From sequence record PZ386947.1: DNA of 64,000 bases. One strand, given 5' to 3'. This document shows, one piece after another, positions 36,801-39,372 of this stretch (position 1 is its first letter; each line of letters starts with the position of its first letter). This DNA comes from a phage. Under the pieces are notes generated by a model. That model worked only from the letters and a program-made list of their open reading frames with translations. It was not told where the DNA came from and did no database searches. The translations under genes were made by a program, and so were the position numbers.

Positions 36801-37110
36801 TAAGCCTTGCGGCAACCTTGTCGGGGTTCCACCTGCTAAGGCAAGTGTTTGTACGAAACGCCGGGATTCGAACCCGGTTATTAAGCAGTTGACGCTACTC
36901 AATATTTTTAAAAGGCCATATCTCGACCATATCCGAACGTTCCGTCAAAAACGCTACTCGGCTTACGGCAAAGATATTTCCTCGAATCGATAATTCGGTG
37001 CGCCGTTTCTGCTGTGATGTAAGAGGGCATCAATAAACGCAAAGATTATTAACGCAATTCCTTACTCAGGGAACATCAGTCCGACGACTTACCGGTAGCG
37101 ACCCGGTTTC

Positions 37111-37461
37111 TTAATATTCTTTTAAAGCATCAATCTGTTTACGGCGTTCACGCCATAAATCAATTGCTTCATACGCGGATTCAACATTTCGAATTGGACG
37201 GCATTTATATAAAGATTTGTGATTTTGATATTGCGTAGATAACGGAATTTTATCTAAAAGGTCTTTACGTTCAAAGTATTCGTAACCATCTAAGCCAAAT
37301 GAACGATTTTTGAGAAATTGCCAATGACCAAATTCGTTTTGAATATAAATATAATCCGCATGTTGATAAAGTAAATTAATTTCACGAAATGAGATATGTT
37401 TTTCATATTCATTGAAGTAAAATGTTAAATCATGAACTACTAAATAAACATTACCTTTCAT
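37111..37461 (-). CDS. hypothetical protein (116 aa)
   Basis: ORF track; immediately downstream of tRNA-Arg. Confidence 0.5.
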   Translation of the reverse strand: MKGNVYLVVHDLTFYFNEYEKHISFREINLLYQHADYIYIQNEFGHWQFLKNRSFGLDGYEYFERKDLLDKIPLSTQYQNHKSLYKCRPIRNVESAYEAIDLWRERRKQIDALKEY

Positions 37462-37479: not shown

Positions 37480-37555
37480 TGGTCGAGGCAGTAGGGATCG
37501 AACCTACGACCTAGGACTTAGAAGGTCCTTGCTCTTCCTTCTGAGCTATGCCCCG
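37480..37555 (-). tRNA. tRNA-Arg (anticodon UCU)
   Basis: hand-folded cloverleaf: 7 bp acceptor stem, T-arm GTAGG-TTCGATC-CCTAC, anticodon loop CTTCTAA, encoded CCA. Confidence 0.85.
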
Positions 37556-37659
37556 TAATTGGGGTGACCGATGGGAGTCGAACCACCCGAGTCGCAATGA
37601 CAATGGATTTACAGTCCACACCGCTACCTCTACGGGATAACTCCCCTTAATTCTTAATT
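37556..37659 (-). ncRNA. tRNA-like element of uncertain identity (degenerate tRNA or stable small RNA)
   Basis: fills the gap between tRNA-Ile and tRNA-Arg; has GGTTCGACTCC T-loop-like motif, acceptor-like 3' end ending CCCCA, and a hairpin with GUA in a 7 nt loop, but no canonical cloverleaf. Confidence 0.3.
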
Positions 37660-37734
37660 TGGTGGCCCTGGGTGGAATTGAACCACCATCTGGCGATTAT
37701 GAGTCGCTTGCTTGAACCTTCCAGCTACAGGGCC
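37660..37734 (-). tRNA. tRNA-Ile (anticodon CAU, presumably modified to read AUA)
   Basis: matches recalled T4 tRNA-Ile; T-arm GGTGG-TTCAATT-CCACC; anticodon loop CTCATAA; encoded CCA. Confidence 0.85.
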
Positions 37735-37912: not shown

Positions 37913-38563
37913 TTATATATTGTTAATTTGATTTAGAATTCTTTTTGCTTGAGTATGACTTACGCCAATATGCTTAGCATATTTAGACAATTCGCCACGT
38001 TTAGAAAAATCATATAATTTAGAAATTTCTATTCTTCTTTTTCTTTCATCCGCAGAAACTTTTGCTTCGTTTGCTTTTGCTATTTTACGTTTAGCTTCTT
38101 GAGAATGAGTTTTACCAGCAAAGCCATTCTTCATTAATCCATTTGAAGACCATCCTTTTAATTTTCCGTTAGAATGTGCCTTTTTAACACCCAATGAAAT
38201 TAATTCGCGTTGCTGATCTGTCATAGGATAATTATTTATATGATCCCATCCACCTTCACCTCCAAGTTTTAAATTATACACATCTGGTCTATTTAAAAAC
38301 TCTTCTGTGACAATATTTTTCTCGGCTTCAAGCATAGATTCTTTATCGTCAAAATACTCTAATATTTCTTTAGAAAAATTTTCTATACCATATTTATCTT
38401 GGGCTCTTTTTAATAATTTACCAGAACCCATATATCCATCATCTAAATTTTCGGTAGAATGCACACCAATATAAATTTTATTATTAATTTTATTTGTTAT
38501 TTTATAAAGATAAAAATGCATATCAGTCCCTAATAAAGAACTGAGCGTCTCACGACGAGTCAT
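37913..38563 (-). CDS. GIY-YIG homing endonuclease (Seg-like) inside the tRNA cluster
   Basis: 216 aa; GIY-YIG core YLYKITNKINNKIYIGVHS...GYMGSGKLL; C-terminal HTH-like region; wedged between tRNA-Gly and tRNA-Ser. Confidence 0.8.
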   Translation of the reverse strand: MTRRETLSSLLGTDMHFYLYKITNKINNKIYIGVHSTENLDDGYMGSGKLLKRAQDKYGIENFSKEILEYFDDKESMLEAEKNIVTEEFLNRPDVYNLKLGGEGGWDHINNYPMTDQQRELISLGVKKAHSNGKLKGWSSNGLMKNGFAGKTHSQEAKRKIAKANEAKVSADERKRRIEISKLYDFSKRGELSKYAKHIGVSHTQAKRILNQINNI

Positions 38564-38739: not shown

Positions 38740-39372
38740 TTATTTATTACGTGAAAAAGACTGTTCTATCAATTCTGGACACTTTCGTTCTATCCATTTT
38801 CTAGCTTTTTGTGGGCTTATACCTATTATTTTAGCAGCTTTACTAACCCATCCAAATTTAGAATAATCGATTTTAACTAATTCTTCGTAAATTTCATCAG
38901 TTAAAATCTTTTCATTAATATTTACCAGTAAATGATATAATTTATTATCATTAGCAATTTTAATGAATCTTTTATAGTTTCCGCCTTTACTTAAACCTAA
39001 TGAAGTAATTGCAGATGATATAGTAGCCGAATTTAATAGTGCGTTTAAAATTTCTTCATCACTAACATTATAACGCTTTTTATTATTTTTAATATTTTTA
39101 CCAGCAAAAGTATCAGTTTGCGAATGGCAGTTTGGACATAATAATCTTAAATTTGATTTAAGATGATTTTTGTTATTTCCATCAATATGGTCTAATTGCA
39201 GAACAATATGCTTATTTTGCCATTTTGAAATTTTACAAATTGCACACTCATATGGAAAAATATTTTCTTTTATTATTTTGTCTTTCAGCTTTCCTGTACT
39301 AAAATTTGGATGTTTTCCTTCAAAAATTTCAGCTAATTTAGTATCCATAATATGATTCCCAATTATTAACAA
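38740..39372 (-). CDS. HNH homing endonuclease abutting tRNA-Leu
   Basis: 210 aa; CAIC...LQLDHIDGNNKNH...LRLLCPNCH HNH/zinc-finger core; C-terminal HTH-like segment; stop 7 nt from the tRNA-Leu 5' end. Confidence 0.75.
   Translation of the reverse strand: MLIIGNHIMDTKLAEIFEGKHPNFSTGKLKDKIIKENIFPYECAICKISKWQNKHIVLQLDHIDGNNKNHLKSNLRLLCPNCHSQTDTFAGKNIKNNKKRYNVSDEEILNALLNSATISSAITSLGLSKGGNYKRFIKIANDNKLYHLLVNINEKILTDEIYEELVKIDYSKFGWVSKAAKIIGISPQKARKWIERKCPELIEQSFSRNK

Follow-up and report, generated by a model that had tools for sequence, protein, structure and literature searches.

The interval 37556-37659 is very probably a hybrid tRNA pseudogene that was left behind by a single 269-bp deletion within a T4-like tRNA cluster. 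It lies in a phage stretch of 64,000 nt, which is called the window here. A 601-nt query around the interval matched Shigella phage CM8 at 100% identity (MK962750.1, a Tequatrovirus; host E. coli BL21). Six tRNA genes were identified in the CM8 window by ARAGORN and Rfam, all on the minus strand (Leu, Gly, Ser, Thr, CAT-anticodon, Arg), and according to ARAGORN the interval consists of exactly the 104 nt separating the CAT-anticodon tRNA from tRNA-Arg, the length that had also been given for this gap in the original prediction. Overlapping mechanical open reading frames reach just 28-36 aa at this position. In the direction of the minus strand, the interval and its two neighbours are composed as follows.

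37660-37734, minus strand: intact CAT-anticodon tRNA, the upstream neighbour (Rfam tRNA, 59.9 bits)
37647-37659, minus strand: 13-nt spacer AATTAAGAATTAA, 3′ of the CAT-anticodon tRNA, the same as positions 1501-1513 of the Ozark locus extract
37585-37646, minus strand: 62-nt 5′ part derived from tRNA-Tyr, in alignments identical to Ozark tRNA-Tyr and one nucleotide off T6 and KIT03
37574-37584, minus strand: deletion junction with the single remaining copy of the 11-nt repeat GGTTCGACTCC, a T-loop common to tRNA-Tyr and tRNA-His
37560-37573, minus strand: 14-nt 3′ end derived from tRNA-His, identical to the tRNA-His 3′ ends of Ozark and KIT03
37556-37559, minus strand: ATTA, the usual spacer between tRNA-His and tRNA-Arg, with the same 4 nt in Ozark and KIT03
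37480-37555, minus strand: intact tRNA-Arg(TCT), the downstream neighbour (ARAGORN; Rfam tRNA, 66.1 bits)

The flanking genes had been taken for tRNA-Ile and tRNA-Arg. The latter assignment holds; the upstream gene is Met(CAT) according to ARAGORN, and its homologue is Ile2-CAT in the Ozark record. In a manual count from the alignment roughly 60% of the aligned positions were alike between this gene and T4 tRNA-Ile, and it is therefore regarded as a T2/T6-type gene and not as the T4 one. The spacer AATTAAGAATTAA that follows is the one usually found ahead of tRNA-Tyr in relatives. The 62 nt derived from tRNA-Tyr comprise the acceptor 5′ strand GGGGAGT, the D arm, the anticodon arm, the long variable arm and the first part of the T stem, and the 14 nt derived from tRNA-His contribute CAT as the 3′ strand of the T stem, the acceptor 3′ strand CGGTCAC, C73 and CCA. 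All features that had been noticed in the letters alone are present and could be assigned. The T-loop-like sequence on the minus strand is GGTTCGACTCC at 37584-37574, the acceptor-like 3′ end CGGTCAC-C-CCA is present at 37570-37560 (minus strand), and the 5-bp hairpin with loop CTGTAAA and GUA in anticodon position is formed by GTGGA/TCCAT, with GTA at 37612-37610 on the same strand. Alignments and an in-silico deletion identify the CCA end as the 3′ end of tRNA-His. Indeed, a Tyr front joined to a His tail explains why both the anticodon arm and the CCA end look genuine.

In related phages the order of this region is CAT-anticodon tRNA, tRNA-Tyr, tRNA-Asn, a 114-nt spacer, tRNA-His and tRNA-Arg, and the Tyr-Asn-spacer-His block is present at the locus in KIT03, Ozark and dozens of relatives. 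In related phages the match to the CM8 query is split into two pieces, with about 270 bp between them. These pieces align the interval to tRNA-Tyr and tRNA-His with 100% identity (best E-value 1e-37), and at the sequence level this resemblance is far above chance. Alignments with KIT03, phiC600P9, Ozark and T6 show that CM8 follows tRNA-Tyr from its first base to the T loop and continues with the 3′ end of tRNA-His and then ATTA. In the Ozark locus GGTTCGACTCC occurs at just two places, 1576 (Tyr) and 1845 (His), which are 269 bp apart, and no other exact repeat pair of 11 nt exists in the tRNA cluster of this phage. In-silico removal of the 269 bp between the two copies yielded the CM8 interval at 104 of 104 positions. 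The lost segment comprises the last 14 nt of tRNA-Tyr, the whole tRNA-Asn, the 114-nt spacer and the first 51 nt of tRNA-His. Depending on the assignment of the shared 11-nt repeat, the contribution of Tyr amounts to 62-73 nt and that of His to 14-25 nt; the sequence specific for the junction is GGGTGGTTCGACTCCCATCGG. The number of intact tRNA genes is 6 in CM8 compared to 10 in KIT03 and Ozark.

The original prediction had considered a tRNA in decay whose anticodon resembles that of Tyr. This was correct for the 5′ 62-73 nt, which are tRNA-Tyr(GUA), and has to be revised for the kind of change, a single 269-bp deletion and not decay by point mutations. The ancestor had the order CAT-anticodon tRNA, Tyr, Asn, 114-nt spacer, His and Arg, and carried GGTTCGACTCC in the T-loops of both Tyr and His. 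The two copies recombined or annealed with each other, so that one copy was left and the intervening DNA was lost. Gene loss of this sort is ordinary among T4-like phages, and the interval is not a new RNA class.

Two further features of the locus in relatives were observed. In Ozark, tRNA-Asn and tRNA-His are separated by the 114-nt spacer (locus extract 1680-1793), which opens with a perfect hairpin, GTGACAACTGTCAC. CM8 has lost this spacer, for which no Rfam match was obtained at E-values up to 1. Phage phiC600P9 has the arrangement Tyr-Asn-Arg and, compared to KIT03, is devoid of the 114-nt spacer and tRNA-His, with the boundary at locus extract 1656-1664. The boundary falls at CCAAAT/CCCAAT, which follows the terminal CCA in both Asn and His, and these short repeats may mark a second polymorphism of the deletion type.

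As Tyr strands stand opposite non-complementary His strands, the acceptor and T stems of the chimera are unpaired and the cloverleaf cannot form. The acceptor strands GGGGAGU and CGGUCAC allow three of seven standard pairs, compared to seven of seven in each of the parental tRNAs, and the T-stem strands GGUGG and CCCAU allow three of five (parental Tyr: five of five). The original prediction had already described the pairing of both stems as non-canonical, in agreement with these counts. The anticodon arm, which stems from tRNA-Tyr, is intact (GUGGA/CUGUAAA/UCCAU; anticodon GUA, 5-bp stem, 7-nt loop, U33 and a purine at position 37). When the minimum-energy fold of tRNA-Tyr was forced on the chimera, an energy of −4.8 kcal/mol resulted, compared to −29.2 kcal/mol for its own minimum, which is not a cloverleaf. 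Its fold was no better than that of dinucleotide shuffles (z = −0.67; 52 of 200 shuffles equal or better), and an independent structured RNA was rejected for this reason.

ARAGORN called no tRNA within 37556-37659. A covariance-model search, which had been proposed as a check, was performed with Rfam and did give a tRNA match (RF00005), with a score of 22.7 bits under the gathering threshold of 29 bits. Besides this sub-threshold tRNA, a permissive Rfam search of the element returned only chance-level matches to unrelated families. The RF00005 match is carried by the D and anticodon arms of Tyr. In the cmscan alignment the Tyr 5′ strand is paired with ACUCC(C) of the junction and the T arm is skipped, resulting in a tRNA-like fold devoid of a T arm. 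This fold was rejected as well, as its energy is −13 kcal/mol compared to −29.2 kcal/mol for the minimum-energy fold and the cmscan score is below threshold. The function as a tRNA is almost certainly lost in the hybrid.

A second proposal for the interval was homology to rnaC or rnaD, the stable RNAs of T4 (species 1 and 2). It has only its position in favour, since the interval adjoins tRNA-Arg as rnaD does in T4. Nevertheless, the T4 RNAs map elsewhere in the window:

36997-37111, minus strand: homologue of T4 rnaD (species 2 RNA; blastn, 99.1% over 116 nt)
36852-36990, minus strand: homologue of T4 rnaC (species 1 RNA; blastn, 98.6% over 139 nt)

Alignment of T4 rnaC and rnaD to 37556-37659, likewise proposed as a check, gave no match by blastn or blastn-short (word sizes 7 and 11, E-values up to 1), and the interval is wholly explained by Tyr and His. 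The proposal is thus refuted, and the probability that the interval represents one of these RNAs is negligible. Both homologues are unannotated in the CM8 record. In T4 tRNA-Arg is directly followed by rnaD and rnaC; in CM8 an open reading frame of 116 aa (CM8_00128, 37111-37461, minus strand) is located between tRNA-Arg and the rnaD homologue. The frame is also present in KIT03, phiC600P9 and IME339, and a Pfam search of its 116-aa product gave no match. Since rnaD directly follows tRNA-Arg in T4 and Ozark, the frame represents an insertion/deletion polymorphism.

How widespread the junction is was determined with a 32-nt query that can be matched by the chimera only. Among 50,697 phage records, CM8 and vB_EcoM_IME339 were the only phages with a match (four records including RefSeq copies), and the exact junction was not found in IMG/VR. 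For a survey of environmental sequences a Tyr T-arm pattern was used that is common to the intact tRNA-Tyr and the chimera. None of the 108 environmental loci with this pattern (37 from metagenomes, 71 from IMG/VR) contained the chimera; all 108 go on with the Tyr-type T stem and acceptor strand. Because the intact arrangement is common in isolates and the sole one in environmental loci, we regard the chimera as a rare derived state. The same distribution argues against the reverse history, in which the chimera would be ancestral and an insertion would have brought Tyr, Asn and His into the relatives. Such an insertion must produce two tRNAs with perfect pairing from a single unpaired hybrid, and KIT03, the closest relative of CM8 by flanking sequence (98.97%), is intact. 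No points in favour of an ancestral chimera were found, and we consider it exceedingly improbable.

The junction of IME339 (MH051915.1) is located at 1501-1605 of the locus extract; the record of this phage has no tRNAs annotated. Within the 104 nt the chimeras of CM8 and IME339 differ at three positions. In the His acceptor strand IME339 reads CCCCCCC compared to CACCCC in CM8, and this difference in a C homopolymer is possibly a read error. Over the 1.6 kb downstream of the junction CM8 is 98.97% identical to KIT03 and just 94.7% identical to IME339. The flank identity of 94.7% together with the three differences favours independent deletions at the same repeat in the two phages. Based on these sequence comparisons we lean towards two independent events, the alternative being that a short tract may have been transferred.

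Both phages that carry the junction were propagated on E. coli BL21, given as BL21(DE3) in the case of IME339, and the deletion may therefore date from laboratory passage. A literature search for the two phages returned nothing relevant. The common host, together with the lack of the junction from all environmental contigs and with a homopolymer in IME339 that resembles a read error, speaks for an artefact of assembly or sequencing, or for a minority variant that became fixed on BL21, in place of a natural allele. However, a repeat of 11 nt is far below the k-mers of assemblers, so that a collapse appears unlikely, and the junction was obtained from two genomes that differ in background and were sequenced independently. 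A deletion derived from passage would still be real and due to the same mechanism. We therefore judge an artefact or a mere passage variant to be very unlikely.

The breakpoints coincide with a motif known from homing endonucleases of T-even phages. The recognition consensus of SegB begins with GGTTCRANTCC, and its preferred site in T2L is located within tRNA-Asn (PMC2330249). The junction repeat GGTTCGACTCC fits the core GGTTCRANTCC exactly, and tRNA-Asn, home of the preferred site, falls inside the segment deleted in CM8. In T6, SegB cuts in tRNA genes at RAWTSGAAC, which is the T loop in reverse complement, and drives a rearrangement around tRNA-Tyr that depends on UvsX/UvsY (PMC13096335). 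The T loop of the chimera is one mismatch off RAWTSGAAC, and GAGTCGAAC is absent from the exact matches. As a separate observation, the T-loop of the rnaC homologue (36865-36873) matches RAWTSGAAC exactly. The tRNA cluster of CM8 itself contains a candidate gene for such an enzyme:

37913-38521, minus strand: gene for a SegB-like homing endonuclease of the GIY-YIG type (SegB-like in MK962750; Pfam GIY-YIG 27 bits, NUMOD3)

The gene is flanked by tRNA-Gly and tRNA-Ser, a place taken by tRNA-Pro in Ozark, IME339 and T4. A second frame, annotated as HNH, extends from 38740 to 39348 (minus strand) upstream of tRNA-Leu, where KIT03, IME339 and T4 have tRNA-Gln; its Pfam HNH score of just 17.3 bits is below the cut-off. 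Both genes are free-standing in the cluster.

A SegB-type enzyme would introduce a double-strand break between the repeats, and resection followed by annealing of the two 11-mers would yield the chimera. The location of the breakpoints and the SegB-like gene nearby suggest a SegB-type break as the likely cause of the 269-bp deletion. Simple slippage, or illegitimate recombination of one repeat with the other, appears about equally possible as a route. Within its tRNA array IME339 has no open reading frame at the position where KIT03, CM8 and T4 carry segB; according to this, an endonuclease encoded at that position is not required for the junction. The mismatch of the chimera's T loop to RAWTSGAAC likewise speaks against an obligatory role.

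No terminator-like site was found on the minus strand from 38523 to 36801, and a strong terminator-like hairpin follows the rnaC homologue (36801-36778, minus strand). As the array is free of such sites, the remnant is probably co-transcribed with the neighbouring tRNAs. Its RNA would come free once RNase P has processed the 5′ end of tRNA-Arg, and would be degraded as spacer RNA. Devoid of an acceptor/T-arm helix it should neither mature nor be charged, and it would not decode. In T6, tRNA-Tyr is a substrate of Septu, which cuts it at C48, and in abundance this tRNA counteracts Septu (PMC13096335). Since T6 tRNA-Tyr aids in the evasion of Septu, CM8 should lack this resource without a tRNA-Tyr. 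The loss leads to the modest prediction that CM8 is more sensitive than its T6-like relatives to defences that cut tRNA-Tyr.

A stable hybrid RNA with a new role would be a different outcome. The D, anticodon and variable arms of tRNA-Tyr are complete in it, and the retained 62-73 nt are one base off T6 tRNA-Tyr, which is both target and counter of Septu (PMC13096335). The presence of the same junction in two phages with 94.7% identical flanks could moreover reflect selection. However, the hybrid fold is neither more stable than shuffles nor tRNA-like, the chimera is absent from the 108 environmental loci as well as from the genomes of all other related isolates, and its recurrence is expected regardless, as the repeat is the sole exact 11-nt pair in the cluster. 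Nucleases that recognise tRNAs usually need the L-shape, which the chimera should be unable to adopt. On balance a new role of the hybrid RNA is very doubtful.

Two bolder ideas are given very little credence. With its intact D, anticodon and variable arms the RNA might be a stable, uncharged mimic of tRNA-Tyr that absorbs variable-loop nucleases; its targets would be host anti-phage nucleases directed against tRNA-Tyr's variable loop. Alternatively, the deletion might have been selected as an escape from SegB, as loss of the preferred site in tRNA-Asn would confer immunity to the homing endonuclease of co-infecting relatives. If true, either the mimic or the escape would account for the same junction in two divergent backgrounds.

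For annotation, the value of the pseudogene reading is that an unannotated 104-nt "spacer" becomes legible as the footprint of three tRNA genes lost in one step. It also provides a natural example of T-loops, which are SegB recognition cores, as endpoints of a deletion in the T-even tRNA region, a region that matters for the evasion of tRNA-cleaving defences such as Septu.

Deletion-generated hybrid tRNA genes have reportedly been described in phage T4 mutants by McClain and Foss in Cell 1984;38:225. A further search of the literature on hybrid tRNA genes yielded nothing useful. The CM8 chimera resembles these T4 genes in that the 5′ and 3′ parts of two genes of a T-even cluster are joined at a short sequence common to both, with loss of the genes between the fusion partners. 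Like such a hybrid gene it is collinear with Tyr in its 5′ part and with His in its 3′ part, with a short shared junction and the intervening DNA absent. The T4 hybrids are reportedly laboratory-selected mutants derived from the tRNA set of T4 itself, whereas the CM8 chimera comes from a sequenced isolate, its parental Tyr and His genes are absent from T4, and its stems are unpaired. Compared to the Tyr-Asn-His block (tRNA-Tyr(GUA) of T6/T2; Ozark, KIT03), the chimera has the same ends, but neither gene is complete.

The rearrangements attributed to SegB, namely its homing in the tRNA region in T4 x T2 crosses (PMC2330249) and the SegB-linked segmental amplification of tRNA-Tyr in T6 (PMC13096335), share with CM8 the locus, a SegB-like gene in the cluster and breakpoints at the T-loop motif GGTTCRANTCC. 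The outcome is a deletion in CM8, in contrast to homing and amplification in T4 x T2 and T6, and the part played by an endonuclease in CM8 is a putative one. With T4 rnaC and rnaD the interval has in common that it is small and non-coding and belongs to the same transcription unit near tRNA-Arg, and rnaC also has a tRNA-like T-arm. It differs from them in that there is no sequence similarity, the true homologues being located about 450-700 bp further downstream. The CM8 chimera is a further natural instance of a T-even deletion-hybrid tRNA gene.
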